A stretch of 64,000 nucleotides of DNA. Source: an uncultured bacterium. GTDB lineage: Bacteria; Patescibacteriota; Minisyncoccia; UBA6257; 2-01-FULL-56-20. The translations under genes were made by a program, and so were the position numbers. The stretch lies in contig CAVYIK010000003.1 of the NCBI GenBank assembly GCA_963768625.1, positions 198,715 to 262,714 on the forward strand, in the 5' to 3' direction. Positions 6,230 to 27,604 of the stretch are shown here, piece after piece (the first letter of the stretch is position 1; each line of letters starts with the position of its first letter). The notes beneath the pieces are model-generated. The model was not told where the DNA came from, searched no databases, and saw only the letters and a program-made list of their open reading frames with translations.

Positions 6230-6250
6230 AAAGCCGCGCAAAAACGCGCG

Positions 6251-6778: not shown

Positions 6779-6803
6779 GGGTTATATTCTAGCACGAAAT
6801 GGG

Positions 6804-8306
6804 CTAAAGTTGCTGCAAAGGATCAACAGAGACCTGCTTCACGACGATCTCACTGTTATTTTTATCCGAATCCCACGTGGTAAAACCAATGCGCCCGCTG
6901 AAAGGAGGATTGATGGTGTTGCCCGTTCCAGCGGTAGATATGATATGTCCATTAAATGAACAGGTCCCTTGGCTATTTTGCACCTGGATAGCGGCTACGA
7001 TATTTGACCCGCCCCATTGATCCCAACCATTCACATCGCCCTGCACTATTGTATATTCATCGCCGTTAATATACTGCTCAAGGTTTATCTGTACGTCGCC
7101 CAAAGCCACTTCATCAAACTCGCACGCCACATAATTTTTATTATTGGTGTAACGCGCCACCAAGCCGAAAGTTTCTCCTTGCACCCAATCAAGCGTCGCC
7201 TGGAAAGTGTAATTCCCGAATGCTTGCGTCCCGCTCAAAAGTATGCCACCGCTTGTGCCAGCGCTGCTTGCGCCGATCGTCAAAGAATCTGTTGCCACCT
7301 CGAAATTGCCCGACCAGCCCTGCCATCCCTGGCTCTTATCGAAAGTGTCGAGAAAAAGCGGCAACGATTTTGTAGTGGTTGCTATGGCGTGTGCGGGAGC
7401 AGCTACGGGAATGGAGGGCTCGGATGCTTCCGCGGGGGCAAGCGGAACTGTGATTGCTGGCGTGGATCCTGTTTGTGCAGATACGGCAGGAGTGCCCACC
7501 GTACTTGTAGCAGATGCGACCACCGAGACCGAGAACGGCACAACAATCGTGTTTTCGGTGAGAGGGACAACGGAAACACTCTTCACCGCCAGCTGATCCT
7601 TTGCCTTTTCTCCCCATGCGATGAAACCGATGCCGCCGGACGTGGATTCGTCTCGTGCAACCGTCGCGCCGAGGACCTCCTTGCCATTCACAAGGCAACC
7701 AACGTCGTTGCCATATACGCTCATGCCCAAGTTAGTCGGCGAAACAACGCCTGCGGGCATCGCGCCGTTCGCGATAAAGACATCGTTATAGTCCACGCGC
7801 CGAATGATCCCAAGCGTATTTGAACCAAATGCGCAATATACAAAATTTTTAGTGTTGTTGGTGACGCGCGCCGCAATATCGAGCCATCCGCCCGTCAGCC
7901 ATTCTATATTTGCCTCTACGGTATAATCGGTCCAAGATGCAGCGTGGTCAAGAAATACGCTACCACCCACATTTGTCGTTGTTGCAGAAAGCAAGAATCC
8001 CCCATTCACTACGGAGAGCGCTCCCCAATGATGGAACCAGTATTGCGTGGTTGAAGCTTCCAGAGTGTATGGCAATATGAAAACCATAGGGGACGGCGCA
8101 GGTTCGGAAATCGTTGCATTGGATAAATTCGTGTTCGTCGCGACGCTTGGCTGGGCCACTCGGGTGATATCGGTGAGGAAAACACTCTGATTTTCACCAT
8201 AACCCTTTAAGTACATAACGCCCGCAGCAAAGGTCACCGTTATCATAACGAGGGCAGTGAAAAATATTCTTAAACCCCTTCTTTTTTTCTCGTCTACGGT
8301 AGACAT
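6804..8306 (-). CDS. membrane-anchored extracellular protein with two tandem lectin/glucanase-like beta-sandwich repeats
   Basis: 500 aa with an N-terminal TM helix. There is an internal duplication (..WTDYTVEANIEW..ARVTNNTKNFVYCAF.. and ..FGNYTFQATLDW..ARYTNNKNYVACEF..) with an S/T/A/P linker between the two copies. Confidence 0.5.
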   Translation of the reverse strand: MSTVDEKKRRGLRIFFTALVMITVTFAAGVMYLKGYGENQSVFLTDITRVAQPSVATNTNLSNATISEPAPSPMVFILPYTLEASTTQYWFHHWGALSVVNGGFLLSATTTNVGGSVFLDHAASWTDYTVEANIEWLTGGWLDIAARVTNNTKNFVYCAFGSNTLGIIRRVDYNDVFIANGAMPAGVVSPTNLGMSVYGNDVGCLVNGKEVLGATVARDESTSGGIGFIAWGEKAKDQLAVKSVSVVPLTENTIVVPFSVSVVASATSTVGTPAVSAQTGSTPAITVPLAPAEASEPSIPVAAPAHAIATTTKSLPLFLDTFDKSQGWQGWSGNFEVATDSLTIGASSAGTSGGILLSGTQAFGNYTFQATLDWVQGETFGLVARYTNNKNYVACEFDEVALGDVQINLEQYINGDEYTIVQGDVNGWDQWGGSNIVAAIQVQNSQGTCSFNGHIISTAGTGNTINPPFSGRIGFTTWDSDKNNSEIVVKQVSVDPLQQL

Positions 8307-8422
8307 CGAAATATTGGACAGATACCAAATAATGTGTTAAACAATATGTTCTAGATTAAATATTCATTAAATCAGTAGGAGTGCTTTAGTATACGATAAA
8401 ACCTAATATAAATCAAGGATGT

Positions 8423-8875
8423 ATGGCATGGAATCGTAAAATAGCGGTCCTCCCTGGCATAGTAGCCGTACTTCTTGCCGCCTCATTTATTGCCTACCAA
8501 AAGAGAGATGTCATCTATGGAGAACTAAACGCGCTTAAGCTCATCCCGATACCGGAGCGTTTCACGGAACTCTATTTTGAAAATTCTTCATCGCTCCCCC
8601 GAAAAACCGTAGCGGGTCAACCTATCTCCTTCTCCTTCACGATCCATAACGTGGAAGGCACAACGACAACGTACCCATATTCCGTATATTTTAAATATCC
8701 AAATGGCGCACAAATCAGCTTTGCAAATAGCAACGTGATACTCGCCGCGGATGCATCAACCTCTATTAAAGTTACGTATATATTCCCTACGTCTAATCTC
8801 GCGGGCATAGTGGTCGTAAATCTTACGCAATTAAACCAGCAAATCGACTTTCTTTTGTCGGGTACCAATCCATAA
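8423..8875 (+). CDS. TM-anchored DUF1616-like protein; first gene of the glycan island
   Basis: 150 aa with an N-terminal TM helix. The TELYFEN...ISFSFTIHNVEG..YPYSVYF pattern resembles the DUF1616 C-terminal domain found beside GT genes. This is a family call from memory. Confidence 0.4.
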   Translation: MAWNRKIAVLPGIVAVLLAASFIAYQKRDVIYGELNALKLIPIPERFTELYFENSSSLPRKTVAGQPISFSFTIHNVEGTTTTYPYSVYFKYPNGAQISFANSNVILAADASTSIKVTYIFPTSNLAGIVVVNLTQLNQQIDFLLSGTNP

Positions 8876-8877
8876 CT

Positions 8878-9642
8878 ATGAAAGCACGCAAGAAAATCGC
8901 TGCTCTTATCCCCTGCTACAACGAAGATGGGGGTATCGGCAATGTCATCAAAAGTTTTCCACTTAAGAAAATCCACGCGCAGGGATATGCGCTTGAGATT
9001 ATCGTTATCGATAACAATTCAACTGATCATACGGCACGGATAGCGCGGTCGCTCGGTGCAACGGTAATCCACGAATCAGAAAAGGGCAAAGGCAATGCGA
9101 TGCGCCGCGGATTTGATGCTGTCGCCAAAGACGCTGATTACGTCGTAATGCTCGACGGGGACGATACGTACCGTCCGGAAGAAATATTGCGCATGATTGA
9201 ACCGCTTGACTCCAACTTCGCCGAGGTCGTGATTGGTTCACGCCTCGGCGGACGGATCTTCGAGGGGTCAATGACCGGGTTCAATCGTCTTGGCAATTGG
9301 GTATATTCGCATTTGGTGCGTTATTTCTATCGCGTCAATGTAACGGATGTCCTCACTGGCTATTTCGCATGGAAACGGGAAGCCCTTGAGCGCCTCCGGC
9401 CGCATATCAAATCAGAGGGATTCGCCATTGAAATGGAAATGGTCACGAAGATGGCGCGGCTCGAGGAAGAGATCACGTGCGTGCCGATTAGCTATCATCC
9501 CCGCATTGGGCAGACGGGTCTTCACCCCATCTATGATGGCATCCGTGTTCTTTGGATGTTCACTTGCAACCTCTTCTGGCAACCGGAGAAACAAGCAATA
9601 CGTTCAAAGATTGTTAAAAAAGCGCATGGAGCGTCGCAATAA
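8878..9642 (+). CDS. family 2 glycosyltransferase (Dpm1/GtrB-like)
   Basis: 254 aa with IPCYNE, VIDNNSTD and MLDGDDTY (DxD) motifs. Confidence 0.85.
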   Translation: MKARKKIAALIPCYNEDGGIGNVIKSFPLKKIHAQGYALEIIVIDNNSTDHTARIARSLGATVIHESEKGKGNAMRRGFDAVAKDADYVVMLDGDDTYRPEEILRMIEPLDSNFAEVVIGSRLGGRIFEGSMTGFNRLGNWVYSHLVRYFYRVNVTDVLTGYFAWKREALERLRPHIKSEGFAIEMEMVTKMARLEEEITCVPISYHPRIGQTGLHPIYDGIRVLWMFTCNLFWQPEKQAIRSKIVKKAHGASQ

Positions 9643-11878
9643 AAATATCGTCATTGTTGCGCACCATTATCCCCCACATATCACGGGAGTAGGGATGGTT
9701 GCGCAAAATCATGCAAAGCGGCTCGCCGCGTTGGGGTATAACGTAACCGTTATCACAAGCGAAACAAGTCCGGAAGAAAAAAGTTATTCCGCGGACGGCG
9801 TCGACGTTGTCCGTATAAAAGCATGGAATATTTCTGAACAGTGGAGTGCACCGTTCCCTATTTTTTCCCCATCTCTTTTCCCCGCGCTCTGGAAAGCCGT
9901 GAGGCGCGCCGATGTCGTGCATATTCACGACGTCCTCTACATGAGCTCCTTTCTTGCGGCCATGTTCGCACGTTGGCAGAAAAAACCAATCGTGCTTACC
10001 CAGCACATTGCAATGATCGCACATCCAAGCAGATTCGTAGTTGTAACCGAAAAAATTGTTTATGCGACAACCGGAGCTATGATCCTTCGCTCTAGCAATT
10101 TAATTTTTACTTTTAACAGTCGCGTTGAACAATTTTTAATAAACCGGGGTGTGCCACGAGCTAAAATCACATCATTACCAAATGGCGTTGATACCGACTT
10201 ATTTCTTCCCGCCGACGAGAAGGAGAAACAAAGCATACGCCTGGAATACAAATTAGATCTTCACGAAAAAATAGTCTTGTTTGTTGGGAGATCCGTTCCG
10301 AAAAAAGGGCTCGATAAAGTTTTGGCCGCTCGTAGCAAAGAATATCAGATCGTTTGCGCCGGAGGAGAAATTCCAAAGGAAAATTATGATGACATAGTAT
10401 TTTTGGGGAAACTTGACCAAAAGACACTGGCACGCATATATCAAGCGGCCGATATTTTTTTACTACCTTCAGAAAGTGAAGGGTTCCCTCTATCAATCCA
10501 AGAAGCAATGGCATGCGGTCTACCCATTATCACCACGCTGGATGAAGGGTACAAAGATTATCAATTGGATAGAACATTAATTTATTTTATTGATCACCCG
10601 ACTGATGCGTCAGTTCGAAGCGCAATCCAAGCCATTATAAATGAGGACCAGCGCCTGGAAAATATGGGTGATTATTCCCGAAAATATGCGGTTAATAATT
10701 TCAGCTGGCCATTAGTTATTTCGCGCCTTGATAAAATTTACAATAGTTTACTGATCAAGAAAAAAATCGCAATTATATCAGATGCTGTTTATCCTTTTAA
10801 TAAAGGAGGGAAAGAAAAAAGAATTTACGACATAGCAACACGCTTGGCTACGCGAGGATATGACGTAACCATTTATTGCATGCAGTGGTGGAAGGGAGGA
10901 AGAACATTCGTGCAAGATGGTGTTACGCTCCACGCCATAAGTCCATACTATCCCCTTTACGCTGGTAATCGACGTTCGATTAAAGAAGCGATCTTCTTCG
11001 CGCTGAACTGTTTTAAGCTCATCAACAAGAAATTTGACATCATTGAGGTGGATCACATGCCGCACCTCGTTCTTTTTACGGTGAAATTTGTTTGTTTATT
11101 GAAACATAAACGAATGATTGCTGTGTGGCATGAGGTATGGGGAAAAGAATATTGGAAGCAATATCTTGGCGTCGCGGGTATTCCTGCTTACTGGATTGAA
11201 AGGGTCAGTGCAAAATTGCCCGATACGATCATCTCCGTTTCCAGTCATACGACACGCGATTTACGGAATGTTCTTAAAACGAAAAGGAGAATCGTAACAA
11301 TCCCAGACGGCCTCGACATTAAAGGTATCGCAAAGAACATTCCGGCGAAATCTGGCGCGGACATCATCTTTGCCGGCAGATTGCTTGCGCATAAAAACAT
11401 TGACGTGCTTCTCCGCGCCGTCGCCATTCTTACAAAGACACATCCAACCATATCCGCCCTTATCATAGGTGAGGGACCGGAAAGAAAAAGGCTTGAGTCG
11501 CTCGCAAGAGAGCTTAAACTGCAAGGTAATGTTTCATTCCTTGACTTTTTTGAAGACCACAATGATCTCTATCGCGTAATGCGCGCATCGCGAGTTTTTG
11601 TTTTGCCATCGACTCGCGAAGGGTTCGGCATGGTGGTCATTGAAGCTAATGCATGCGGCTTGCCGGTTGTTGCCATAGAAAACGAGCGAAATGCGGCCAA
11701 GGATCTCATCGCGAAAAATGAGAACGGTGTATTGTGCATATTAGATAAAAATAAATTAGCGGAGATGATAGAGAAAGTATTATCTATCAGAAAAAATTCT
11801 GATTTTTATTCAAAATATTCAGAGCGATATGACTGGACTCATATCATGCCAAAAATCGAAAATTTATATCTGACATGA
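9626..11878 (+). CDS. tandem GT4-GT4 fusion glycosyltransferase (about 750 aa)
   Basis: Start taken at the in-frame ATG 9626 (MERRNKNIVIVAHHYPPHITGVG). The second GT-B module begins at ..KKKIAIISDAVYPFNKGGKEKR. Both halves contain E(G/S)FG..(I/V)EA motifs. Confidence 0.8.
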   Translation: MERRNKNIVIVAHHYPPHITGVGMVAQNHAKRLAALGYNVTVITSETSPEEKSYSADGVDVVRIKAWNISEQWSAPFPIFSPSLFPALWKAVRRADVVHIHDVLYMSSFLAAMFARWQKKPIVLTQHIAMIAHPSRFVVVTEKIVYATTGAMILRSSNLIFTFNSRVEQFLINRGVPRAKITSLPNGVDTDLFLPADEKEKQSIRLEYKLDLHEKIVLFVGRSVPKKGLDKVLAARSKEYQIVCAGGEIPKENYDDIVFLGKLDQKTLARIYQAADIFLLPSESEGFPLSIQEAMACGLPIITTLDEGYKDYQLDRTLIYFIDHPTDASVRSAIQAIINEDQRLENMGDYSRKYAVNNFSWPLVISRLDKIYNSLLIKKKIAIISDAVYPFNKGGKEKRIYDIATRLATRGYDVTIYCMQWWKGGRTFVQDGVTLHAISPYYPLYAGNRRSIKEAIFFALNCFKLINKKFDIIEVDHMPHLVLFTVKFVCLLKHKRMIAVWHEVWGKEYWKQYLGVAGIPAYWIERVSAKLPDTIISVSSHTTRDLRNVLKTKRRIVTIPDGLDIKGIAKNIPAKSGADIIFAGRLLAHKNIDVLLRAVAILTKTHPTISALIIGEGPERKRLESLARELKLQGNVSFLDFFEDHNDLYRVMRASRVFVLPSTREGFGMVVIEANACGLPVVAIENERNAAKDLIAKNENGVLCILDKNKLAEMIEKVLSIRKNSDFYSKYSERYDWTHIMPKIENLYLT

Positions 11879-13023
11879 AAGAGAACTTCACTGTGGGCGA
11901 TAAAATAGTTATTGTCACCCCTTATTTTTATCCAAAAATCGGTGGAGTTGAAAATTACGTTTACAATATAGCACGGCGGTTGCATCAAGGTGGCAAATAT
12001 CACGTGAGTATTGTAACGAGCAACCACGAAACCAAGGGTTATCGAGAAGAAATTATCGATGGCATGACTGTATACCGACTTCCAGTTTGGTTTAAAATCT
12101 CGAATACACCCATCAATCTGCAATGGTATGGGTGGATGAGACGTTTTTTCACCGTCGAAAACCCAGACATCATTTGGATCCACTCGCCCGTGCCATTCAT
12201 GGCGGATATCGCCATGTTAGCAGCAAAAAAAACTCCGATTGTATTTACGTATCATTCCGGAAACATGCTCAAAGGTAAATGGCTACTTGATATTCCTATT
12301 CACTTTTACGAAAGCGTACTTCTTCGTGCGCTTTTTCGAAGAGCTGACACAATTGTATCGTATTATCCGAAATTTGCTCAGTGTGAACTTCGTCAATTCT
12401 CTCACAAGACCTATTTTATTCCACCGGGAGTAGACCGAGATCAATTTAAAGTGACTGCGTTACCACACAGAACAGAAATCGTAACCTTCGTGGGACGCAT
12501 AGAACATAATTCAGACTGGAAAGGCGTTGAACAACTTTTGCAAGCAATGGCATTGGTAATAAAGCAACGTCCACGAGCTCAGCTTGAACTCGTTGGCGGT
12601 GGAGATGCGATTGAACACTATCGCCTGCAAGCTGAAAAGTTAGGAATTGGTCAGTCTGTTTTTTTTATCGGACCAAAGACAGGCCAGGATTTGGCCGAGG
12701 CATATAAAAAAGCTTCTTTGGTGGTACTGCCATCGACATCCGACTCGGAATCATTTGGCATAGTCTTAATTGAGGCGATGGCTTCAGGAAGACCTGTAAT
12801 TGGTTCTGATATTGGAGGCATCCCCTCTGTCATCGATCATGAAAAAAATGGTTTGCTTGTTCCTCCTAAAAATCCTAAAGCGCTCGCCGAGGCGATAGAG
12901 CGAATTCTTGGAGATAGAGTCTTAGCGGTGCGCCTCGCTAATTTTGGAGAGGCAAAAGCCCAAAACTTTAGATGGGAAAACCAAACGAAAAAATATGTCA
13001 ATCTTTTCAAAACAATTATATGA
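11875..13023 (+). CDS. family 4 (GT-B) glycosyltransferase
   Basis: 382 aa with PSTSDSESFGIVLIEAMASGRPVIGSDIGG. ATGA overlap with the upstream gene. Confidence 0.85.
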   Translation: MKENFTVGDKIVIVTPYFYPKIGGVENYVYNIARRLHQGGKYHVSIVTSNHETKGYREEIIDGMTVYRLPVWFKISNTPINLQWYGWMRRFFTVENPDIIWIHSPVPFMADIAMLAAKKTPIVFTYHSGNMLKGKWLLDIPIHFYESVLLRALFRRADTIVSYYPKFAQCELRQFSHKTYFIPPGVDRDQFKVTALPHRTEIVTFVGRIEHNSDWKGVEQLLQAMALVIKQRPRAQLELVGGGDAIEHYRLQAEKLGIGQSVFFIGPKTGQDLAEAYKKASLVVLPSTSDSESFGIVLIEAMASGRPVIGSDIGGIPSVIDHEKNGLLVPPKNPKALAEAIERILGDRVLAVRLANFGEAKAQNFRWENQTKKYVNLFKTII

Positions 13024-13964
13024 AAATATCTTTGATTATAACAATAAAAAATGAGGAAGGGACAATTCTCCAGCTTCTTGATTCAATAAAGAGGCAAACA
13101 AAATTGCCAGATGAACTTATTATTGTCGATGCGAATTCCGATGATAAGACCGTAAAGATAATTAAAAAAGAAATGGCCAACTTTCCAATCCCAATTGACG
13201 TTTTAGTTCGAGAGAATGTTAATATCGCACAAGGAAGAAATGTCGCTATTACGCAAGCTCGCTACGATGTTATCGCGGTAACTGATGGTGGTTGCGTCCT
13301 CGACAAGGATTATCTAAAACACCTCGAAGAAGCTATGACAAAAGAGTCCGCAGAGGTCGTATTCGGAGCATCTCAAGCAGTCGGCAAATCGTTTGTCGGT
13401 AAATGTTTTGCTGAATTCTATAACGCTAAAGTGTCGGGCAAAAAACTTGCCGTGACCGAACTCTCTAGTCGATCGGTCATGTTTACAAAAAACGCTTGGC
13501 GAAGGGCCGGTGAATATCCCGAATGGCTAACTTTAGCCGGTGAAGATACTTTGTTTTTTGTAAATTTGCAAAAAAGTAGTAGCTGCGTCTTCTGTAAAAA
13601 TGCTTTTGTGTTTTGGATTCATAGCTATGAAAACTTAGAGAAAATATTTCGAGTACACTATAGAAATAGTATTGGGGATGGCGAGTCGGCGAGAGGAGCC
13701 GCCAAGTATACACTTCTAATATTCATATATGTTGTAGGCGTGTTGATATTCCTCACTTCAATTTTCTTAAGACAGTATTGGTTACTGTTATTGCTTATAG
13801 TTATTTCATTTTTATATTTGTCACGTAAGACACCGTCTATTTATAAACAACTTCACGACATGAGAGCTGTTTTTGTGGTGCCAGTATCTACTTTTTTCCG
13901 TGAAGCAGGATTAATAACAGGATATCTCAAGGGCGCCATAAGTAAACACGATGAGAAGAAATAA
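13020..13964 (+). CDS. family 2 glycosyltransferase with C-terminal TM helices
   Basis: Start at ATG 13020 (MKISLIITIKNEEG), an ATGA overlap with the upstream stop. Contains IIVDANSDD and a hydrophobic C-terminus. Confidence 0.8.
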   Translation: MKISLIITIKNEEGTILQLLDSIKRQTKLPDELIIVDANSDDKTVKIIKKEMANFPIPIDVLVRENVNIAQGRNVAITQARYDVIAVTDGGCVLDKDYLKHLEEAMTKESAEVVFGASQAVGKSFVGKCFAEFYNAKVSGKKLAVTELSSRSVMFTKNAWRRAGEYPEWLTLAGEDTLFFVNLQKSSSCVFCKNAFVFWIHSYENLEKIFRVHYRNSIGDGESARGAAKYTLLIFIYVVGVLIFLTSIFLRQYWLLLLLIVISFLYLSRKTPSIYKQLHDMRAVFVVPVSTFFREAGLITGYLKGAISKHDEKK

Positions 13965-13976
13965 ACTTTTAGAAAC

Positions 13977-15108
13977 ATGAATATTATTCTAATCCCTTAT
14001 CTGCCCTCAGCCGTAAGGGCGCGTCCTATGGCGAAATATTTCATTAAATCCGGAGATGGCGTGCATATGATTGTATGGGATATGCCGTATCCGATAACTT
14101 TCAAGAATATTTGGAGTAATATAGGGAATTCCTGGAAATATAAAACGTATGTCGAGGAAGGCGTTACGATACATAAAATTAGCGCCTACCCTTCTTTTCC
14201 CGCCGGTAAATAAAATTCTCTTTAAAAATCAGATCCGTAGCATATTCAAAAAATTTAATATTGACGTTATTATTTCCGAAACATATTTCAACGAAACTGA
14301 ACCACCGCTAGATTTACCGATTTTCTATGATATGTCCGACGATCATGACGCTTTCGCGGAAATTTATGGTTCAAAAATATATAAATTCGCCTGGGAAATC
14401 TTAGGGGTTAAGAAGACCATCAAAAATCAGATATGTAAAAGCATAGCCGTAATTGCCGTTTCTGATAATTTAGTTGAATACGCTAAGCAGTATAGATCAA
14501 ATGCAATATTTAAAATTACTAATGGAGTCGAAGATTGGGTCATTCATGAGGACTACGCAGAAGGTAAGAAGTACTCTTTGGTTTACGTAACAAATTTTGG
14601 AAAATGGTCAGAAGTGAAGCAGCTTCTATTCGTGGTTAACGAACTAAAAATTGAATATCCCGATATTCAATTAGCTTTAATTGGAGACGGTTCAGAGATC
14701 CCTGAGGCTAAAAGAACCACCAGAGAATTAGATTTAGAAAGGAATGTTAAATTCTTGGGAAAAATCAGCAACAGGAAGGAACTTTTTAAAGAAATAAATA
14801 AATATGAGGTTTGCTTGAATATTTCTGAAAAAAACAGCTTCAGGGACTCCGCAAGCCCGATGAAGGTTTTTGAATATTCTGCACTAGGCAAAAAAATTGT
14901 TTCTACCAATTTACAAGAAGTAGAAAAGCTTAATTTTCCAAATATATTTTTTTATGAAAAAGATGAGGGCAACAAAAATTTAACAAGCGCTATTAAGAAG
15001 GCTTTTAGAACAGAAATTGATGCCCATGAAACGAAGAATATGGTCGCACCTTATAATTGGGAAGTGATCATTCAAAAGATTAAAAAAATAATTTCCGAAC
15101 AGATATGA
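13977..15108 (+). pseudogene. GT4-like glycosyltransferase interrupted by one frameshift near 14170-14215
   Basis: The N-terminal 78-aa ORF (MNIILIPYLPS...GVTIHKIS) continues in the next frame (..LFPPVNKILFKNQ...), which carries the GT-B C-terminal half. Confidence 0.6.
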
Positions 15109-18100: not shown

Positions 18101-18407
18101 TGACGGTGAGGTTTATTCAGCACAGTGGCTCAAGGCGAACTACAATGGACAATCACTAGTTTACGCAGATGCACTTGCCACTCTCCGGCTTCGTTCCTAT
18201 GCCTTGATGAATACAGATTTTACCACCATTTTCCCCGCGATCATTACCAGGGACAGCTATGTATACATGAGTTACGATAATATTCATCGAGGAGCGGCAT
18301 ATGTCGAATACAATAACAATCTTATTAACTATAGCTACCCAATTCAATTTCTCGGAAATAACAAAAATTTGATCTATAACGACGGTGACTCTGAAATCTT
18401 TAAATGA
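15105..18407 (+). CDS. GT2 domain fused to a large polytopic membrane domain (1100 aa); possible polymerase or membrane GT
   Basis: The N-terminal roughly 330 aa are GT2 (VVICSFNG, VVDDGSTD, DDDC). This is followed by more than 15 predicted hydrophobic helices and a soluble C-terminal tail. ATGA overlaps occur at both ends. Confidence 0.8.
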   Translation: MTKQKIPLISVVICSFNGGKHIQKCLKSLAEQTYPKKLYEVIVVDDGSTDNTGQIAKEQGANVIRHEINLGIPVARNAGFVAAKGEIIAYIDDDCVADSQWLEKLIQPFNDSSIIAAGGKILPLKINRFAERYMAAVGYGNPAPLEFGQSKNPIWRFWIYLKSMFRPIADIKEPTEVQAVFTANVAYRTSALKGIGGFDTTLLSDEDIDASSRLRKAGGRIMFIPDAIVRHCHHERLSKFIKQTYVRGENTLRYYSKEKKVPPLFPLPFLYVGLIIACGIIRPVAGVAIILFGPFILYSWWITRAIGTNSFEYLMYGYIQITLEISAILGLIRGFLKRRSPVELEEAPVQQEPLIFTIRHILTTTFAATVVVNLAVLYRYAVPFVTTPIILLGMLFIPGFLLALLFKIKLQSRSDFATYAFGLGLAFWIFGGLAVNWIFPLMGISAPLRLAPLLLFFNDSIAIMAVWVWFKNSTTQWTITRTSFNVAERWLTFVAPILLVMSLVGSEILNNLGSGAMTFAMIAGIGIYIFALAIIKKPVRDGIYAWSMWCLGSALLLMYSMRSWHLLGWDINAEYQVFQLALQKGLWNIGTSASAYNACLSITILPTILANFLPISPEYIFKLIMQLLFGMMPVMVFLLSRRFISKVGAALAGFIFMSQLWFYEQMTALIRQEIAFLFLGIALLVIFDALLSRRRQVILFLIASCGLILSHYSTAYVWLAMFFLTLIFSTLARFFIPTLKASPKKFTWILFLISLICIFCWEAVVTQSGNNFTKFAKSSIGDVEQAFSPNVIEDGISQIFFSAPNTNTDENLKQEMVITTTAFQAEGGLYPSSTYSNYNPKVINGDLIWPSLVPSSVSNFVLLISKISKFLVIDVFALLGTLFLAWKAWRRQKTIHHEYIAFCLASFPLIFLMIFLPILSVNYNLTRLFMQIFIVLSAMAIMGGLTFFSFLPRWRIIILALLTVILFFYSIGFTARFFGGLAHVTLNEPNGTFDNYYVYDGEVYSAQWLKANYNGQSLVYADALATLRLRSYALMNTDFTTIFPAIITRDSYVYMSYDNIHRGAAYVEYNNNLINYSYPIQFLGNNKNLIYNDGDSEIFK

Positions 18408-19288
18408 AACCGACGATATCCATCATAATAATAGTAAAGAATGATCGGGGCATCGCTGATACACTCGCGGGTTTGGCGACTCAGAAAAGACCTGTTCCAA
18501 CCGAAATAATTGTGGTTGATGCTTCAGAACCATCATTGATGGCCGGTATTCGCAAACAATATCCAGATGTTCATTGGTATCAATTTGTGCCAATTATACC
18601 AAATAAGACTTCTATTCCAGAGCAACGCAATTTTGGCATTCGGCATGCCGAAGGTGAAATCATTGTTTTCATTGATGCGAACTGCGTACCATCGGAAAAT
18701 TGGCTTGTTGAACTTACAAAGCCTATCCTTGATGGTAGCGAGACCATGACCGCTGGATCGGTCCGTGCTTCCAACCCCAAAACACGAGTTAACCTCAATC
18801 CAGTTGATATGAAAAGTGACTATCTTTCATCAAGTCCGACAATTAATCTTGCTTTCAAAAAAAATCTTTTGGATAAAGTGGGTGAATTTGATGAATCATT
18901 TTTGTTTGGATCGGATGTTGATTTCACTTGGCGGTGCAGAGCGCTTGGTAATAAAATCCGTTTTGTTCGCCAGGCCACGGTAACACATGATTGGGGAGAT
19001 TTTAAAGACGAGATCAAGCGAAGTTTTAAATATGGTAGAGCTCGGGCAAAGCTTCTTATTAAGCATCCTGAACGACGCTACGAAGATCTACTCGGAGATA
19101 GTCTTGCTATACCTGTTTACACTTTGTATTTTATCGGCCTGCCATTGACTATGATTGTTTGGTGGTATCCTTTCACCATTTTAGTCCTTATGGCTAAAAA
19201 TATCGGTCAGCAACCGATTAAGACTGTCTTTCTCAACTCGGCGTACACACTCGGTTTTATTAAAGGAATACTCATGAGGACTCCCTAA
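18404..19288 (+). CDS. family 2 glycosyltransferase
   Basis: 294 aa with ISIIIIVKNDRG, VVDASEP and FIDANC motifs, plus a C-terminal TM segment. Confidence 0.8.
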   Translation: MKPTISIIIIVKNDRGIADTLAGLATQKRPVPTEIIVVDASEPSLMAGIRKQYPDVHWYQFVPIIPNKTSIPEQRNFGIRHAEGEIIVFIDANCVPSENWLVELTKPILDGSETMTAGSVRASNPKTRVNLNPVDMKSDYLSSSPTINLAFKKNLLDKVGEFDESFLFGSDVDFTWRCRALGNKIRFVRQATVTHDWGDFKDEIKRSFKYGRARAKLLIKHPERRYEDLLGDSLAIPVYTLYFIGLPLTMIVWWYPFTILVLMAKNIGQQPIKTVFLNSAYTLGFIKGILMRTP

Positions 19289-19298
19289 TATATGAATC

Positions 19299-20327
19299 AT
19301 GAAAATACTCGTTTTCCCAAAAGATAAAAATCCCTATCAAGAATTGCTTTATACAGAGATGCGAAAGCGAGGAGATGTCGTAAATTATTTATCCTACTCT
19401 ACTTCGAGTGCAACGATTAATTCTCTGACCTTGATTCCAAGAATAATTTTCTGTCGATTGCAAGGCTATACTATTTTTCATCTACACTGGATATATGCTT
19501 TTTCGCCGCGAGCCAGAGTTTGGCGGATGAAATTATTTAATAATTTGGCTTATCTGCATTATCTTTTTTGCTTAAAGATAGTTAAACTTTTGAATTATAA
19601 ATTGGTCTGGACGGCGCACAATGCTTTGCCGCACGAATCCCTTTTTTCCAATGATATTGTGGCCCGCCGAAAATTAATTGGGAGCGCCGACCTCGTTATC
19701 GCACATTCTGCCGCAACCATTGAAGAGCTGAAGAAAATCGGCGCAGAGCCGAAACGACTTATAATCATCCCCCATGGAAGTTATATCGGGATCTATCCAA
19801 ACACTATCACTCGCAATGCGGCACGAGAAAAACTTGGTCTCCAGCCAGACGTATTCGTTTATTTATACCTTGGTCAGGTTCGAGAATATAAGGGTGTTGA
19901 TAATTTATTAGATGCATACGAAAAAATGAGAACCGAAGAGAGCGCGCTCATCATCGCGGGTGAGGGTTCAAAAATAGGGCATGTCAATGATAATGAGCTC
20001 CAAATCTATTTCAATGCGGCGGATGTCGTTGTTCTTCCTTTTAAGAAAATAACAACGTCAGGTTCGGCACTGTTGGCATTTTCATTTGGTAAAGCGGTGA
20101 TCGTCCCTCGCCTGGGAGACCTCGCTAACTTACCTCATGAGATAGCATATAAATATTCCCCCGACGAAAGTGACGGCTTGGTCAATGCGATGAAGCAAGC
20201 AAAAAATAACGTTGAAATACTTCACAAAAAATCCAGGGCGGCCCTAGAATATGCAAAGCAGTTAAGCTGGCCTTCTATTGCAAAACAGACGCACGATGCT
20301 ATGCGGGAACTTTTCTCAGATCGATGA
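19299..20327 (+). CDS. GT-B (GT4-like) glycosyltransferase
   Basis: 342 aa. The C-terminal half has ..ADVVVLPFKKITTSGSALLAFSFGKAVIVP. Last plus-strand gene of the operon. Confidence 0.65.
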   Translation: MKILVFPKDKNPYQELLYTEMRKRGDVVNYLSYSTSSATINSLTLIPRIIFCRLQGYTIFHLHWIYAFSPRARVWRMKLFNNLAYLHYLFCLKIVKLLNYKLVWTAHNALPHESLFSNDIVARRKLIGSADLVIAHSAATIEELKKIGAEPKRLIIIPHGSYIGIYPNTITRNAAREKLGLQPDVFVYLYLGQVREYKGVDNLLDAYEKMRTEESALIIAGEGSKIGHVNDNELQIYFNAADVVVLPFKKITTSGSALLAFSFGKAVIVPRLGDLANLPHEIAYKYSPDESDGLVNAMKQAKNNVEILHKKSRAALEYAKQLSWPSIAKQTHDAMRELFSDR

Positions 20328-21573
20328 GAGTCCGCCAGTTGATAATAAAATAAGCGATGACGGTGATTACCTGCCCAATAAGCACCGACCACGCGACTGC
20401 CATGAGTCCATATGGAACCATGATGTACGCTAACACGACGATGCTCAAAGCATTGAGAGCGTTCATAAAAATATACAATCCTGCAAGCTTTTTAATATTA
20501 AGCAAAGTATCCCCAAAGTAATTCGCCGCACCTATTAAACTTGCAAGAGCAAGAATGCGTAATGGCCACGTACCCGCCGATGCATAATTTGCGCCAAAAA
20601 ACCGAAGAATAAACCCGCCGAGAAACCACGTTACGATGATAGCCGGAACTAACAGCAAAAATAAATTTTTCAGTCCGTCTTTAAGATATTTCACGAGCCT
20701 GGATTCGTCATGAGAGATCTCCGCAAATAAGGATTGAGCCGTAGAACTAGGAATGATATTGAGGAAAGCAACGATCATAGAAGGCATATAGAAGAATGCT
20801 GCTTCTTGAGAGCCAAGACGAGAAAGAACAATGAGTGTTAATATGCTGGACGGAAGTATGCCAAATAAACTTCCGATATAATTACTGGCGGCAAAACGCC
20901 GCGTTTCAACAATAATTGTTTTATCAAGTTTCCAAGTCGGACGATAATGAAATTCTTTGAAAAGCCAAAAAAATCCTAAACAGCACGCAATGACAGTGGC
21001 GACTGTTGTCGCGCTCAAAATTCCCATAAAACCGATACCGATTATCATAAAAACCAAAGAAAGTTTCAATATACTAAAAACTATATTTTCCCACAAAACA
21101 TAATGAGCAGCGCGATAAGCAATAAAAGCGCTTCCCACTACACTGTTTAGTGTAAGTATCGAGACGTATACAATAAAGATTACTGCCAAAAGAATGAAAT
21201 GCGGATATTGAACGCTCGGGCTATGTGTCAGAACTGCCCATACTAAGAACGCGACGCCCGCTATAATGCTTGCAACGCCACTCAATATGAACGCTGTAGA
21301 TAAATGTTCGTTTTTTCTTTCTGAAGTGGGCAGAAATCGAATAATTACATTATTGAACCCCAACAAACCGAAACCGGTCATCAAAGATGCCGCGGCGATA
21401 AGCGAGGTGGCAATCCCAACATCGCCGGGAATATAAAGTCGCGCGCAAACGATCCAAAAAAAGAATCCGAAAATTGCCTGAACTCCCGTACTCAACATCA
21501 AATAAACTGAATTTCGGAATAGGCTATCAGTTAAGAAATGTCGCCATAGACGGCGAAGGGAATTATTAATCAT
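20299..21573 (-). CDS. Wzx-like polysaccharide flippase (MOP superfamily)
   Basis: 424 aa and hydrophobic throughout, with about 12-14 helices. Sits in the glycan-cluster context and is convergent with the GT operon. Confidence 0.75.
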   Translation of the reverse strand: MINNSLRRLWRHFLTDSLFRNSVYLMLSTGVQAIFGFFFWIVCARLYIPGDVGIATSLIAAASLMTGFGLLGFNNVIIRFLPTSERKNEHLSTAFILSGVASIIAGVAFLVWAVLTHSPSVQYPHFILLAVIFIVYVSILTLNSVVGSAFIAYRAAHYVLWENIVFSILKLSLVFMIIGIGFMGILSATTVATVIACCLGFFWLFKEFHYRPTWKLDKTIIVETRRFAASNYIGSLFGILPSSILTLIVLSRLGSQEAAFFYMPSMIVAFLNIIPSSTAQSLFAEISHDESRLVKYLKDGLKNLFLLLVPAIIVTWFLGGFILRFFGANYASAGTWPLRILALASLIGAANYFGDTLLNIKKLAGLYIFMNALNALSIVVLAYIMVPYGLMAVAWSVLIGQVITVIAYFIINWRTLIDLRKVPA

Positions 21574-22214
21574 AGAGATATTTCACTGCCATTGCTACAT
21601 AGTTCAAAACCGCGCTTGCGAATTCCCTGGATAAGACTAGGCAATGCTTCAATGGTGTAATGTCCGTTTAGATGTAAGAGCACGCACGCGCCGGGATGAA
21701 GTTCACCTAAAACATTTTCTTGGATTTGCCTTGCATCAATCCCCTTCCAATCACCGCTATTAATGGTCCAGAATACGATGCGATAACCAAGTTTGTGGGC
21801 AATTTTCCGAATACGATCGTTGTAGGCCCCGTATGGTGGTCGTAGGAGTTTACTTGGCACGCCATTCCGAATTTCTTTTTCTATTTCAGTAGATGAAAGC
21901 TTGGTCAATTTGCGGTGCGAATAACTATGATTTCCAACCCAATGGCCATCTGCCTTAATCGTATTCACGAGTTCCGGATTTCCTTGTGCCCATTCGCCCA
22001 CAAGAAAGAAGGCTGCTTTTACCTTTTGGCCCCGCAATATATCAAGTATGTGATAGATATTCACGTTATCAGCATAATCATCGAAAGTCAGCAAAATACG
22101 GTTGGTATGGTTATATCCGTATGATTCTTCTTTGGTCGGCTTAATGCGCCACAGTACATATGGCCGCATAAGCCGATCTTTCGCCCTGCTTATTTTGTTT
22201 AATAAATATGACAT
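21570..22214 (-). CDS. polysaccharide deacetylase (CE4, NodB homology domain)
   Basis: 214 aa with LTFDDY, GNHSYSH and LLRPPYG motifs. Confidence 0.85.
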   Translation of the reverse strand: MSYLLNKISRAKDRLMRPYVLWRIKPTKEESYGYNHTNRILLTFDDYADNVNIYHILDILRGQKVKAAFFLVGEWAQGNPELVNTIKADGHWVGNHSYSHRKLTKLSSTEIEKEIRNGVPSKLLRPPYGAYNDRIRKIAHKLGYRIVFWTINSGDWKGIDARQIQENVLGELHPGACVLLHLNGHYTIEALPSLIQGIRKRGFELCSNGSEISL

Positions 22215-22276
22215 TCCTCTATGGGATATTTTGTGTTAGAATAGCATAATCATAACTGCTTTTCCAAGAAACGAAT

Positions 22277-23530
22277 ATGTTTAAGGTTTTTATGGTTGCC
22301 TTGGTCGTAGCGCTTGTGGCAATAAGCCTCGGCGCATTTTTGTGGTTCGAGAACACTGCGGTTGTTCAGCCGTCATTGCCCATCACTCAGCAAGCATCAA
22401 CGGGGACACCTCCTGCTCTTAGTTCTAGCGCCAGCACGGCTTCCTCAACCCCCGCCGTTTCCAGTTCACCGATTTCCGTTGTGACCACGACGCCATCTGC
22501 ACCGCCGATTAAAAGCAACTTTCAGTTTGGTATTTCGACTGGCGGAGGATTAGCGTATTTGAACCAAAACGACCTCATGGCCCGCTTGCAGGCAATAAAG
22601 AAATTGGGAGTGGGATGGGTACGCTTCGACGTCGATTGGAGTGTTATCCAAAAATCGAACTCGAGTAGTTATAACTGGGCGGGATATGATCGCATTGTTG
22701 CAAACCTTAACGCGCTCGGGCTAAAAGGACTCGGCATCATCGATTACACTCCCCAATGGGCACGCCCGGTAAATTGTCCCCAAAGCCTTAAATGTGCCCC
22801 CGCTGATCCCGCTCAATTCGCCACATTTGCGCAAACCGTCGTGAAACGCTATTCCTCAAAAGGAATGCACACATGGGAAATATGGAACGAGCCGAACATA
22901 ACTGACTTCTGGCAACCAACGCCTGATGTAACTCTCTACACTAATCTTCTCGAAGACACCTATACCGCGATTAAAAAACAGGATCCTTCAGCTTTTGTCC
23001 TTTCCGGAGGCCTTAGCAGGTCCGGCACAGGAAATAACGAAATTTCTCCCGTTGATTTCCTTACGCAACTCTATGCAGATGGCGCGGAGCCATATTTTGA
23101 TGCAGTCGCACTCCATCCATATTCATATCCAAATCCCCCTTCTTATGCCTGGCAGTGGAATCCGTGGTACCAGATCGCAAGTACGACGCCGAGCTTGCGG
23201 AGTGTGATGATCGCGAATGGCGATGCAAACAAGAAAATTTGGCTCACGGAATATGGCGCGCCAACCAATGGTCCGGGAATTCTCGCCACACCTGAAAGTT
23301 ACACCGTAAATCAAAATGCCGATCACGTGACGGAAGTTCTCCAAGCCCAAATGATGGCCGATGCGATTATCTCGGCGGAGAAAATGCCATGGATTGGGCC
23401 ACTTTTCTTCTATACCTATAAAGATTCTGGCACCTCAACCAGTACTATTGAAAATTTTTTCGGCTTTGTCCGCTTCGATGGCAGCGAGAAGCCAGCATAC
23501 ACGACAATCAAAAATCTGATTTCTGAATAA
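22277..23530 (+). CDS. membrane-anchored clan GH-A glycoside hydrolase (PslG/GH39- or GH5-like)
   Basis: 417 aa with an N-terminal TM helix and S/T/P linker, a HTWEIWNEPN catalytic-acid motif and a LTEYGAPT nucleophile region. Confidence 0.7.
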   Translation: MFKVFMVALVVALVAISLGAFLWFENTAVVQPSLPITQQASTGTPPALSSSASTASSTPAVSSSPISVVTTTPSAPPIKSNFQFGISTGGGLAYLNQNDLMARLQAIKKLGVGWVRFDVDWSVIQKSNSSSYNWAGYDRIVANLNALGLKGLGIIDYTPQWARPVNCPQSLKCAPADPAQFATFAQTVVKRYSSKGMHTWEIWNEPNITDFWQPTPDVTLYTNLLEDTYTAIKKQDPSAFVLSGGLSRSGTGNNEISPVDFLTQLYADGAEPYFDAVALHPYSYPNPPSYAWQWNPWYQIASTTPSLRSVMIANGDANKKIWLTEYGAPTNGPGILATPESYTVNQNADHVTEVLQAQMMADAIISAEKMPWIGPLFFYTYKDSGTSTSTIENFFGFVRFDGSEKPAYTTIKNLISE

Positions 23531-23588
23531 TCGCCGGCTGCTTGACTCCGCGCTGATTTTCGTTTAAAATACCTTAATTAATCTAAAC

Positions 23589-24383
23589 ATGGCTAAAACG
23601 CGCATTAAAATCGGCATCATCGGACTCGGCTACGTTGGCGGTGCCGTAAAGAACTGGTTCGAAAAGAACAAAAGCCGTTACGACCTTTTTCTTTATGATA
23701 AGTTCAAGAACATAGGGTCCGTTGAGGAAGTGAATCGTGCCGACATTATTTTTATTTCCGTCCCGACACCATTCATTAAGGGGAAAGGTTACGACGATTC
23801 CGCCGTGCGGGAATCCATCGTAAACGTAAAGGATGGCAAGATCGTTGTTTTAAAGTCCACCATCATGCCGCGGTCCACGGAGAAATTCCAGAGACATTAT
23901 CCTCGGAAAACTATTCTCTTTAATCCGGAATTCCTGCGCGCAAAAACGGCGGCGCAAGATTTCTTGAAACCCGACCGGCAGATCGTAGGATACGCAACGC
24001 CAAAAGGGAAACAAGCTGCTCAAAAAGTGCTTGGGATGCTCCCGCGCGCGCCATATGAGAAGATAATGAGATCTACCGAAGCCGAAATGGTGAAGTATTT
24101 CGGCAATGCGTTCTTGGCAAATCGTGTTATCTTCGCAAATCAAATTTACGATATCTGCAAAGCTGCGGGAATTGATTACGAAACCGTAAAAGAAGGAGCC
24201 GGACGCGATCCCCGGATCGGTTTGAGCCACTTTGACGTTTTTGACGATGGGTATCGTGGATACCGAGGGATGTGCTTGCCAAAGGACGTGAAGGCACTGG
24301 TCCAATTTGGAAAATCGGTGCATGTCGATATGGATATGCTGCAATCGCTTGAAAGGATAAATAAGAAGCTTGACCTGGAGTAA
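23589..24383 (+). CDS. short UDP-glucose/GDP-mannose dehydrogenase family protein lacking the C-terminal domain
   Basis: 264 aa with a GIIGLGYVGGAV Rossmann motif and a catalytic-Cys-like GMCLPKD. It stops before the usual UDP-binding domain. Confidence 0.6.
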   Translation: MAKTRIKIGIIGLGYVGGAVKNWFEKNKSRYDLFLYDKFKNIGSVEEVNRADIIFISVPTPFIKGKGYDDSAVRESIVNVKDGKIVVLKSTIMPRSTEKFQRHYPRKTILFNPEFLRAKTAAQDFLKPDRQIVGYATPKGKQAAQKVLGMLPRAPYEKIMRSTEAEMVKYFGNAFLANRVIFANQIYDICKAAGIDYETVKEGAGRDPRIGLSHFDVFDDGYRGYRGMCLPKDVKALVQFGKSVHVDMDMLQSLERINKKLDLE

Positions 24384-24423
24384 TTTAACGAGAATTTAAG
24401 GAGTTTGCTGTTATAATGGGGGT

Positions 24424-27390: not shown

Positions 27391-27394
27391 TGTG

Positions 27395-27604
27395 ATGAAA
27401 ATGCTAAGGGCATTTTTCTTGACCCTCTCTGTCTTCGGCCTGCTTGGCTGGCTCTATATCGTCGTGAGCGCAACGTTTCACCCGTGGACGCTTCCCATGC
27501 CCCTCACACACCTGCTCCCCTATCCGCGCGAGGATACGTTCGGCGTCATCTGCTTTATCGTCTCAATGGTCTCTTTCTTTGTTTGGAACCTTATAAAAGA
27601 CTGA
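27395..27604 (+). CDS. small two-TM membrane protein
   Basis: Internal ATG at 27395 (MKMLRAFFLTLSVFGLLGWLYIV..). TACAAT lies 6 nt upstream. 69 aa. Confidence 0.4.
   Translation: MKMLRAFFLTLSVFGLLGWLYIVVSATFHPWTLPMPLTHLLPYPREDTFGVICFIVSMVSFFVWNLIKD

Follow-up and report, generated by a model that had tools for sequence, protein, structure and literature searches.

A DUF2206-type glycan cluster in an AT-rich block of a Patescibacteria contig, with a candidate lipid-monophosphate route

The window analysed here is a 64-kb stretch of contig CAVYIK010000003.1 (positions 198,715 to 262,714) from an uncultured bacterium of the Patescibacteriota, and its subject is an AT-rich block of glycosyltransferase (GT) genes between about 8.3 and 24.4 kb. 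The block is very probably a member of a widespread, uncharacterised glycan cluster type of Patescibacteria (Paceibacteria-like). The conserved core of this type consists of a small DUF1616-like protein with a single transmembrane (TM) segment, a TM-less GT2 resembling AglJ and dolichyl-phosphate mannose (DPM) synthase, a Wzx flippase and a DUF2206 protein of the GT-C type; between the core genes lie one conserved GT4 and a variable set of GT4 and GT2 genes, often with a carbohydrate esterase of family 4 (CE4). As a whole, the data are best explained, with a probability of about 0.5, by a resident locus whose products would assemble a glycan on a lipid monophosphate.

The closest described systems use such chemistry. 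In Lactococcus, the repeat unit of the polysaccharide pellicle (PSP) is assembled on C55-monophosphate: WpsA, a TM-less GT2, and WpsB, a small membrane protein, produce GlcNAc-P-C55, which cytoplasmic GTs that vary between strains extend before it is flipped by a Wzx-type flippase and transferred by a GT-C enzyme (PMC10821137). In Streptococcus pyogenes, GlcNAc-P-undecaprenol is the product of GacI, whose activity the small protein GacJ stimulates, and its GlcNAc is transferred outside by the GT-C enzyme GacL (bioRxiv 10.1101/180810). AglJ, AglG/I/E, a flippase and AglB do likewise in Haloferax (PMC3871713).

The window resembles the Lactococcus wps locus in having a TM-less GT2 beside a small membrane protein at its start, followed by variable cytoplasmic GTs (WpsC-F in Lactococcus), a flippase of the Wzx type (WpsG) and a transferase of the GT-C type (WpsJ). 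Assembly on polyprenyl monophosphate, and hence a module without a phosphoglycosyltransferase (PGT), would be a further common feature, which for the window we infer. In contrast to wps, the GT-C protein of the window belongs to DUF2206, whose profile found no relative among the sequences of the Protein Data Bank (PDB), and one GT2 is fused to it; the small protein is DUF1616-like, with one TM segment and a beta-sandwich, and not GacJ/WpsB-like; a polymerisation pair of the WpsH/WpsI type was not recognised and no rhamnan genes were seen in the window; and the host is a bacterium of the Candidate Phyla Radiation (CPR). The Agl system of Haloferax volcanii (AglJ, AglG/I/E, AglB, AglD/AglR/AglS and AglM) is approached from another side. 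The first GT2 of the window resembles AglJ more than any other family; for the fused GT2, AglG ranks among the top sequence matches and an archaeal enzyme, PcManGT, is the best fold match. Both systems also combine a Wzx-like flippase, a GT-C enzyme for the final transfer and a gene resembling UDP-sugar dehydrogenases with the lack of a PGT. However, the GT-C protein of the window is not of the STT3/AglB type, and the host is bacterial.

Several smaller systems (GacI/J/K/L, GtrA/B/C, CsbB/GtcA/YfhO, ArnC/ArnT, and Ppm1 with AftA/PimE) also join a DPM-type GT2, a flippase and a GT-C enzyme, and AftA is the best fold match of DUF2206. These three- and four-component systems add single sugars, whereas the window co-transcribes six to eight further cytoplasmic GTs, and it differs from the three-component systems in having no small flippase of the GtrA type. 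The four-component combination of a TM-less GT2, a Wzx-type flippase and a GT-C protein encoded together is present in the window and recurs in related loci. With the Wzx/Wzy loci for O-antigen and capsule (enterobacterial rfb, pneumococcal cps) the block shares a GC content below that of the genome, conserved edges, a variable centre, Wzx and a tight GT operon, but neither the locus nor the 64 kb contains a PGT, Wzy, Wzz/CpsCD or LCP ligase. As in PslG-type arrangements, a secreted glycosidase resembling glycoside hydrolase (GH) families GH5/GH39 adjoins the biosynthetic genes, and about 12 related loci likewise have GH homologues beside the cluster; in contrast to PslG, the Pfam scores are at family level and another copy forms part of a protein with peptidoglycan-binding, Ig and fn3 domains.

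A recurrent cluster type and its genes

A scan of contigs with the DUF2206 alignment returned 79 metagenome loci, mostly from Patescibacteria, with a shared order: small DUF1616-like protein, AglJ-like GT2, GT4b, variable GT4/GT2 genes, DUF2206, further GTs and, on the minus strand, Wzx. With open reading frames (ORFs) called crudely in these loci (longest ORFs, assigned by BLAST), 20 of the 24 loci whose sequence extends far enough carry the AglJ-like GT2 upstream of DUF2206 and 19 carry the small protein; Wzx follows downstream in 24 of 36 loci, and on the minus strand in 22 of the 36. Among the 18 well-flanked loci the small protein is present in 17, Wzx in 16 and the AglJ-like GT2 in 13. 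Further ORFs inside the related clusters (88 in all) are for the most part CE4 deacetylases (15, the most frequent family), pyruvyl transferases (10) and methyltransferases (7), in addition to GT4s and sugar epimerases. Homologues of DUF2206 and of the P-type ATPase adjacent to the block carry the names Patescibacteria group, Paceibacterota, Parcubacteria, Kaiserbacteria and Saccharimonadia. The same gene set is carried by an Acidimicrobiaceae metagenome-assembled genome (L002); therefore, the cluster type is not limited to CPR bacteria.

The genes of the window that concern the block are as follows (GC3, GC at third codon positions).

6804..8306, minus strand: membrane-anchored surface protein of 500 aa, divergent from the operon; TM segment at residues 14-32, no Pfam match; GC 0.51, GC3 0.54
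8423..8875, plus strand: small DUF1616-like protein, first gene of the operon (PF07760 family match)
8878..9642, plus strand: AglJ/DPM-synthase-like GT2 of 254 aa without TM segment (Pfam, TIGR04182)
9626..11878, plus strand: GT4-GT4 double glycosyltransferase of about 750 aa (Glyco_transf_4 and Glycos_transf_1, two stretches each)
11875..13023, plus strand: GT4 (Pfam), with an ATGA overlap at 11875
13020..13964, plus strand: GT2 with a C-terminal TM segment, residues 232-250 (Pfam); GC 0.376
13977..15108, plus strand: GT4 split by one frameshift near 14197 (frames 13977-14211 and 14149-15108); GC 0.34, the minimum of the block
15105..18407, plus strand: GT2-DUF2206 fusion of 1100 aa (Pfam)
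18404..19288, plus strand: GT2 with a C-terminal TM segment, MftF/EpsD-like (Pfam, NCBIfam)
19299..20327, plus strand: GT4-like glycosyltransferase, last plus-strand gene of the operon (Pfam)
20299..21573, minus strand: Wzx-type (Polysacc_synt) flippase, convergent with the operon (PF01943, PF13440; at least nine hydrophobic segments)
21570..22214, minus strand: CE4 polysaccharide deacetylase (PF01522, E = 3.6e-31)
22277..23530, plus strand: GH5/GH39-like glycosidase, secreted or anchored, with an S/T/P-rich linker (Pfam, family-level scores)
23589..24383, plus strand: short protein of 264 aa resembling UDP-glucose dehydrogenase (UGDH) (partial PF03721, and PF00984)
24424..27390, plus strand: secreted protein of 988 aa with two peptidoglycan-binding domains, Ig, fn3 and a C-terminal glycosidase (Pfam); GC 0.564

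Two related contigs allow a closer comparison. In L001, the order from the divergent 500-aa gene through the GT4-like gene matches that of the window, with identities of 62% for the small protein, 69% for the AglJ-like GT2 and 62% for the GT2 of 18404-19288; the GT4-like gene is 64% identical to the start of its L001 homologue. The L001 homologue of the 500-aa protein, which in the window has one N-terminal TM segment, two repeated domains of about 200 aa and an A/P/S/T-rich linker, occupies the same position (34-43% identity) and has an internal repeat as well. The double GT4 is represented in L001 by a single GT4 that corresponds to its second half (60% identity), and the next GT4 differs; double GT4s recur in L083, L088 and L129. 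The fusion is 43% identical overall, 58% in its GT2 half and 38% in its DUF2206 half, and the segment 13020-15108 has no counterpart in L001. In L088, a 439-kb GC-rich Paceibacterota contig, the right flank is common with the window and comprises the GH gene, a gene for a protein like that of 988 aa, the short UGDH and a small ORF. Homologues of the 988-aa protein adjoin the cluster in L088, L150, L133 and L161. The small conserved ORF of about 73 aa lies 3' of the 988-aa gene (27380-27598, plus strand, in the window; 16012-16230 in L088) and is 70% identical between the two.

Two further observations concern related loci. In L088, DUF2206 occurs twice in tandem within one cluster (7623-12199; 787 aa and 738 aa), a doubling that may separate polymerase and transferase roles. 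L082 and L083, from independent JGI and ENA assemblies, are 99.995% identical over 2568-22304, which spans the whole DUF2206-type cluster, and unrelated upstream of 2568; either a rearrangement or transfer has affected the edge of the cluster, or an assembly is chimeric.

The plus-strand genes from 8423 to 20327 form one compact, tightly coupled operon, because ATGA overlaps of stop and start occur at 11875, 13020, 15105 and 18404 and the remaining junctions are gaps of at most 12 nt or a single 17-nt overlap. The ORF of the double GT4 opens at 9347, overlapping the GT2, and the ATG at 9626 is its likely start. The Wzx gene and the operon overlap by 29 nt at their 3' ends. A promoter scan gave 37 sites against 36.5 expected from shuffles, and terminator-like sites, without assigned positions, were somewhat more frequent than expected. 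No signal peptide and no TM or hydrophobic segment was detected in the CE4 protein of 21570-22214, which by its sequence is probably cytoplasmic.

The frameshift in the GT4 of 13977-15108 is a single indel in a TTTTCCC run. Restoring the frame would give a protein of about 378 aa, and both frames align end to end with intact homologues (L103, L148, L108 and L128; 43-54% identity). A similar pattern was found at 44-48 kb (44000-48700, minus strand), where the operon for S9, L17, RpoA, S4, S13, L36 and IF1 is broken across several frames, with RpoA pieces spread over four or more frames at 45502-46310; other long genes of the window are intact. Because these ribosomal-protein and rpoA genes are essential, their frameshifts are most likely local indel errors of the assembly. 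The frameshift in the GT4 is for this reason not to be taken at face value, and it may be an assembly error rather than a real pseudogene.

A first reading of the letters (the original prediction) had listed the glycan genes of the block, a coupled operon with four ATGA overlaps and a surface-glycan function. Every listed gene was found, with Pfam agreeing almost item by item, all four overlaps are present, and the Pfam gene content supports a surface-glycan biosynthesis locus. Two of its assignments need qualification. The DUF1616 likeness is sub-threshold for the single protein of 8423-8875 (PF07760, E = 0.013), but 27 of the 29 family members match PF07760, with a best E-value of 4.7e-10. 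The UGDH gene had been called short, and it is so: it has no C-terminal UDP-binding domain, and in Pfam the three-domain layout of UDP-glucose/GDP-mannose dehydrogenases is not present. However, the short form is conserved and no truncation. A truncated pseudogene at a deletion border was considered and rejected, as the short length is kept in the L088 orthologue (268 aa, 75% identical) and in the L146 form (263 aa).

The small protein has one TM segment and an extracytoplasmic beta-sandwich, with the conserved motif TELYF...F.FTIHN.E...Y.Y, and resembles GacJ and WpsB in position and size only. A single paper on DUF1616 was found, and it merely lists a Haloferax glycoprotein. The neighbouring GT2 (8878-9642), in which no TM segment was detected, matches TIGR04182 (AglJ) over residues 7-227 with 195.4 bits (E = 1.3e-57), far above any other family and below the 325-bit equivalog cut-off of that model, so that the protein is AglJ-like and not an AglJ equivalog. 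Its NCBIfam matches are AglJ, dolichyl-phosphate hexose transferase and PpgS, and its best PDB sequence match is the DPM synthase of Pyrococcus furiosus (5mlz; residues 5-206, E = 9e-12); an unnamed glycosyltransferase (9omh) and ArnC rank next. Polyprenyl monophosphate is the substrate that both DPM synthase and ArnC glycosylate. These family relations point to the GT2 as a candidate polyprenyl-phosphate hexosyltransferase, acting as initiating enzyme or as donor synthase.

The DUF2206 protein and the proposed route

The 1100-aa fusion consists of an N-terminal membrane GT2 (residues 1-339) and a DUF2206 domain with a GT-C fold (about 347-1100), joined by a flexible linker. DUF2206 (PF09971) matches residues 859-1099 with 83.6 bits against a gathering cut-off of 35.6. 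For the DUF2206 domain, an AlphaFold (AF2) model computed from an alignment of 114 homologues has a predicted local distance difference test (pLDDT) score of 94.4, and the full-length model reaches 93.2, with the linker (340-346) below 50 and disordered. In Foldseek searches of the PDB, the top eight matches of the DUF2206 model are all GT-C proteins (AftA, PglB, human and yeast STT3) at probability 1.00, with E-values of 2e-4 to 1e-2 and TM-scores that are only moderate (0.36-0.48); ALG9 and Pmt4 follow further down at lower probability. Residues R562, D570 and E574 (R562..G-W-D570-I-x-x-E574, in the motif RSWHxxGWDIxxE) are invariant across the 114 sequences. Their loop sits past the seventh predicted helix and is placed outside by helix counting and the positive-inside rule alone. 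No WWDxG (WWD/WWE) motif was found in the 1100 aa, and no match to STT3 (PF02516) at E ≤ 0.01; the DUF2206 domain, as modelled, is therefore a predicted GT-C enzyme of a separate family, distinct from AglB/PglB. DUF1616 and DUF2206 are both Pfam families first defined on archaeal proteins. The literature search returned nothing relevant on DUF2206, on CPR oligosaccharyltransferases or on GT-C proteins of Patescibacteria.

The GT2 half has PcManGT (6yv7) as its closest fold in Foldseek and MftF, EpsD and AglG as its closest sequences in NCBIfam. PcManGT is a crenarchaeal membrane GT2, a mannosyltransferase with three TM helices. The possibility that the fused GT2 is a polyprenyl-phosphate sugar synthase for its own GT-C domain, a GtrB-GtrC Rosetta stone, was considered and rejected as the main reading: its best matches are those just named, and AglJ/DPM synthase reaches only a weak 31.8 bits. 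Stand-alone DUF2206 proteins of 750-790 aa are abundant, with 5518 representatives at the 50% identity level (E ≤ 1e-3, profile of 114 homologues), and the fusion is rare. Four full-length fusions were found in a word-based search, a long N-terminal extension is present in about 8 of the best 150 DUF2206 representatives, and among the matches listed in a profile scan of genome contigs with the fusion alignment, which was keyed on generic GT2 motifs, only L002 has a full-length relative. A membrane GT2 ends at most 300 nt upstream of DUF2206 in 13 of 57 related loci, and therefore the fusion joins genes that are often neighbours. In addition, a 706-aa protein (P0006) joins a CE4 domain to a GT2 that matches the GT2-plus-TM module of the fusion (residues 3-342), an architecture that suggests a functional link between CE4 and GT2s of the fused type.

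Pfam scans of the sizeable ORFs of the 64-kb window found no PGT (PF00953, PF02397), Wzy, Wzz or ligase, in agreement with the original prediction, and no LCP; no PGT, Wzy, Wzz or LCP occurred among the recurrent families of the 88 extra ORFs of related clusters. The original prediction had suggested that the fusion may replace these functions. For the extracytoplasmic step this is plausible, because the C-terminal part has, in the model, a GT-C fold; for initiation it did not hold, the GT2 of 8878-9642 being the better candidate.

On these grounds we propose, tentatively and at slightly less than even odds, an en-bloc route on lipid monophosphate. On the cytoplasmic side, the AglJ-like GT2 would transfer a hexose or N-acetylhexosamine (HexNAc) to polyprenyl monophosphate. 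Extension of this lipid-monophosphate-linked oligosaccharide would then fall to the GT4s and to the GT2s tethered to the membrane, among them the GT2 half of the fusion; the cytoplasmic CE4 would de-N-acetylate one residue, and Wzx would flip the lipid-linked product. Outside the membrane, the GT-C domain of DUF2206 would transfer the glycan to an acceptor, possibly polymerising it too, and the flanking glycosidases may trim or remodel the product. PGT, Wzy and Wzz would be absent because such a route needs none of them. The acceptor may be a polymer of the wall or a lipid; linkers rich in S, T and P in secreted proteins are a third candidate. The products of 6804-8306, 22277-23530 and 24424-27390 all have S/T/P/A-rich linkers, and we speculate that they are acceptors or glycan-processing enzymes. 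A broader claim, which we regard as doubtful, is that DUF2206, with about 5500 clusters at 50% identity, provides the terminal transferase of the main surface-glycan route of Patescibacteria/CPR, a route present in some Actinomycetota too, in an archaeal style without PGT, Wzy, ABC exporter or synthase. In the boldest version of this claim, DUF2206 would be an O-oligosaccharyltransferase acting on the S/T/P-rich linkers of the neighbouring secreted proteins.

Two other explanations account for part of the same evidence. The locus may serve decoration only: the AglJ-like GT2 would make a polyprenyl-phosphate monosaccharide, Wzx would flip it and DUF2206 would attach one sugar at a time, perhaps in repeated rounds, to an external polymer or glycolipid, while the GT4 and GT2 enzymes would build a separate acceptor, such as a glycolipid-anchored lipoglycan, that is exported otherwise. 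The core parts list equals GacIJKL, and the best structural match of DUF2206, AftA, is a GT-C enzyme dependent on polyprenyl-phosphate-arabinose. Moreover, the top NCBIfam matches of the GT4s include GlcNAc-phosphatidylglycerol synthase, monoglucosyl-diacylglycerol synthase, IagA/BgsA, MshA and BshA, and a pair of ABC-2 permease and ABC ATPase genes (40522-42118, minus strand), which could be a glycopolymer exporter of the Wzm/Wzt or TagGH type, lies 18 kb from the block. We nevertheless consider decoration unlikely. The coupled operon has six to eight cytoplasmic GTs for just one flippase and one GT-C protein, neither the window cluster nor the related loci contain an ABC exporter or synthase, a separate export route would be needed elsewhere every time, and Lactococcus shows the same core carrying elongated oligosaccharides. 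The elongated version fits the operon best because of this set of GTs, the one flippase, the one GT-C protein, the lack of another exporter and a CE4 that appears cytoplasmic. A classical Wzx/Wzy pathway for exopolysaccharide or wall polysaccharide, with a PGT encoded elsewhere, DUF2206 as polymerase or ligase (an analogue of Wzy or WaaL) and the AglJ-like GT2 as an ordinary extender, would agree with the usual anatomy of O-antigen and capsule loci (Wzx, a GT array and a variable centre of low GC), with the adjoining PslG-like glycosidase and with systems such as GacO and TagO, whose initiating enzymes lie outside the cluster. This pathway appears improbable: no PGT recurs in the 79 related loci or occurs in the 64 kb, the first GT2 is like AglJ, DPM synthase and ArnC over about 200 residues and that group acts on polyprenyl monophosphate, and DUF2206 has no Pfam match to Wzy_C or O-ag_pol_Wzy and a fold of the AftA/STT3 type.

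Several points weigh against the lipid-monophosphate reading. The small protein and 28 homologues match DUF1616 and are not of the GacJ/WpsB type, and no match to DUF2304 was found. The AglJ score under its equivalog cut-off and the moderate TM-scores limit how closely the two key enzymes can be equated with known ones, and AftA, which uses a polyprenyl-phosphate donor for single sugars, suits decoration equally well. The absences cover 64 kb of the genome, and a PGT, Wzy or LCP gene may lie elsewhere. Folds, family likeness, gene order, recurrence and absences are what was observed for the cluster type; from these we infer the catalytic steps, all of them, as well as the acceptor and the nature of lipid and sugars.

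Composition and origin of the AT-rich block

The composition shift claimed in the original prediction was borne out by each measure used. GC content is 0.419 at 8310-22300 and 0.480 at 22301-24400, against 0.560 at 1-8309 and 0.550 at 24401-64000, and the block differs from the outside with p = 3.6e-14 (Mann-Whitney test, 500-nt windows). GC3 is 0.34-0.46 in genes of the block and 0.65-0.78 in backbone genes. The composition-normalised tetranucleotide correlation with the backbone (4-kb chunks) is 0.70-0.81 inside the block and mostly 0.84-0.94 outside. The minimum lies in the centre, at 13020-15108 (GC 0.34-0.38), and the edge genes are intermediate, with GC 0.51 at 6804-8306, 0.49 at 22277-23530 and 0.47 at 23589-24383. 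The 988-aa gene at 24424-27390, with the GC content of the backbone, marks the right border.

Outside the block, one chunk with DUF11 repeats is also low in tetranucleotide correlation (0.78). It is covered by a gene at 57467-61297 (minus strand), whose 1276-aa product has four DUF11 repeats and a PA14 segment and is probably a large surface adhesin. GC is also lowered at 37-40 kb, and a second, small low-GC patch (0.446) at 43-44 kb contains a TaqI_C/Methylase_S fragment for restriction-modification specificity (43005-43586, minus strand).

Low GC is largely shared by relatives of the block. Across 32 related loci with usable flanks, cluster and flank GC are correlated (r = 0.95), the cluster is lower by 4.5 points on average (Wilcoxon p = 2e-6), and it is AT-richer than its flanks in 28 of the 32 loci; therefore, a moderate AT bias belongs to the locus type. 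The deficit of the window is larger, at -0.12 by the definition used for the locus set and -0.135 with the limits drawn in the original prediction (z about -2.1 to -2.4; one of the 32 loci is as extreme), and in GC-rich relatives, L088 among them, the cluster goes no lower than about 0.49-0.53. The genes of lowest GC (13020-15108) are exactly those without a counterpart in L001. Moreover, the DUF2206 half of the fusion is 46% identical to a stand-alone protein from an organism with a GC content of 0.38, against 38% to L001, whereas the GT2 half is closest to L001 (58%). Because the centre is unlike L001 in its genes and has its best matches in low-GC organisms, an exchange of the central cassette is plausible. 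Low GC thus probably has two layers, a generic AT bias of the cluster type and a replacement of the central cassette. We consider it rather probable that the locus is resident, with conserved edges and a centre swapped by recombination with lower-GC lineages.

The original prediction had proposed horizontal acquisition of the locus, a view that synteny and conservation within the lineage would speak against. Exchange of the centre, as described, keeps part of that proposal, but recent insertion of the whole 14-16-kb AT-rich block from a low-GC donor is in our view quite unlikely. It would explain a deficit of 12-14 points in GC and about 30 points in GC3 that lies in the tail of the 32 loci, the likeness of the block's genes at all three codon positions (GC1/GC2/GC3) to a genome of about 42% GC with little amelioration, and the origin of the closest homologues of DUF2206 and of the frameshifted GT4 in organisms with a GC of 0.35-0.38. 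In L087, moreover, the ATPase gene is directly followed by DUF2127, and in the window the same pair brackets 6.2-27.6 kb; this adjacency is only suggestive, and at 36% identity the orthology of the DUF2127 genes is doubtful. However, no integrase or transposase domain (Pfam), no flanking pair of direct repeats and no tRNA at a border were found, the borders are graded, and L001 has the same locus with the same neighbour and the same AT-richness beside a GC-rich gene (msrA, GC3 0.73). The gene order of L001 and the right flank shared with L088 thus show the locus as partly syntenic and conserved. The glycosidase of 22277-23530 is, furthermore, 67% identical to residues 647-987 of the 988-aa backbone protein (GC 0.49 against 0.56), and the two are paralogues; the general AT-richness of the cluster type argues in the same direction. 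An assembly or binning artefact, in which a GC-rich contig was fused with an AT-rich one of a different organism, would be in keeping with the local quality trouble at 44-48 kb. Such a chimera is very improbable, as composition shifts gradually over genes at both borders, the independent assembly L001 has the same GC-rich/AT-rich junction, the GH, UGDH and 988-aa genes, adjacent in L088 too, tie the block to backbone-type genes, and an identical fusion protein is recorded together with the ATPase on one 588-kb contig.

Residence of the locus has its own weak points. Synteny rests on two related contigs, L001 and L088. Neighbour-joining trees of the AglJ-like GT2 and of GT4b place the window with L001 and loci of low or middle GC and disagree on L088; they carry no support values and are weak evidence of mosaicism. 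The three contigs anchored by the ATPase (74-78% identical) share no neighbourhood and are uninformative about the block.

The tRNA gene closest to the block lies at 29.6 kb. It is a tRNA-Ser (anticodon CGA; 29559-29631, minus strand) of only 73 nt; its shape is that of class I, its variable loop has 4 nt and its anticodon stem is closed by a C.A mismatch (Rfam score 48 bits). A long variable arm is usual in bacterial tRNA-Ser.

Significance for Patescibacteria surfaces

CPR/Patescibacteria are mostly uncultured epibionts whose surface chemistry is barely known, although the surface must mediate host attachment and phage recognition. What is new here is the assignment of the locus to a large unstudied cluster type, the recognition of DUF2206 as a GT-C family on the basis of its model, and the choice of lipid-monophosphate pathways as the closest working model. 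An anonymous AT-rich block thereby becomes a member of a defined cluster type, with an AglJ-like GT2, a new predicted GT-C family (R..GWD..E), Wzx and variable GTs, and this type is tied to pathways on lipid monophosphate that were recently established in Gram-positive bacteria and archaea. In addition, low GC is largely a property of the locus type, and composition alone is therefore no sign of recent horizontal transfer.

If the proposed mechanism is true, the DUF2206 and DUF1616-like proteins would gain a function, and the rare GT2-GT-C fusion would offer a handle on how cytoplasmic and extracytoplasmic steps are coupled. The boldest version, which we regard as doubtful, would mean that CPR cells, as episymbionts, wear a glycoprotein coat that varies between strains.

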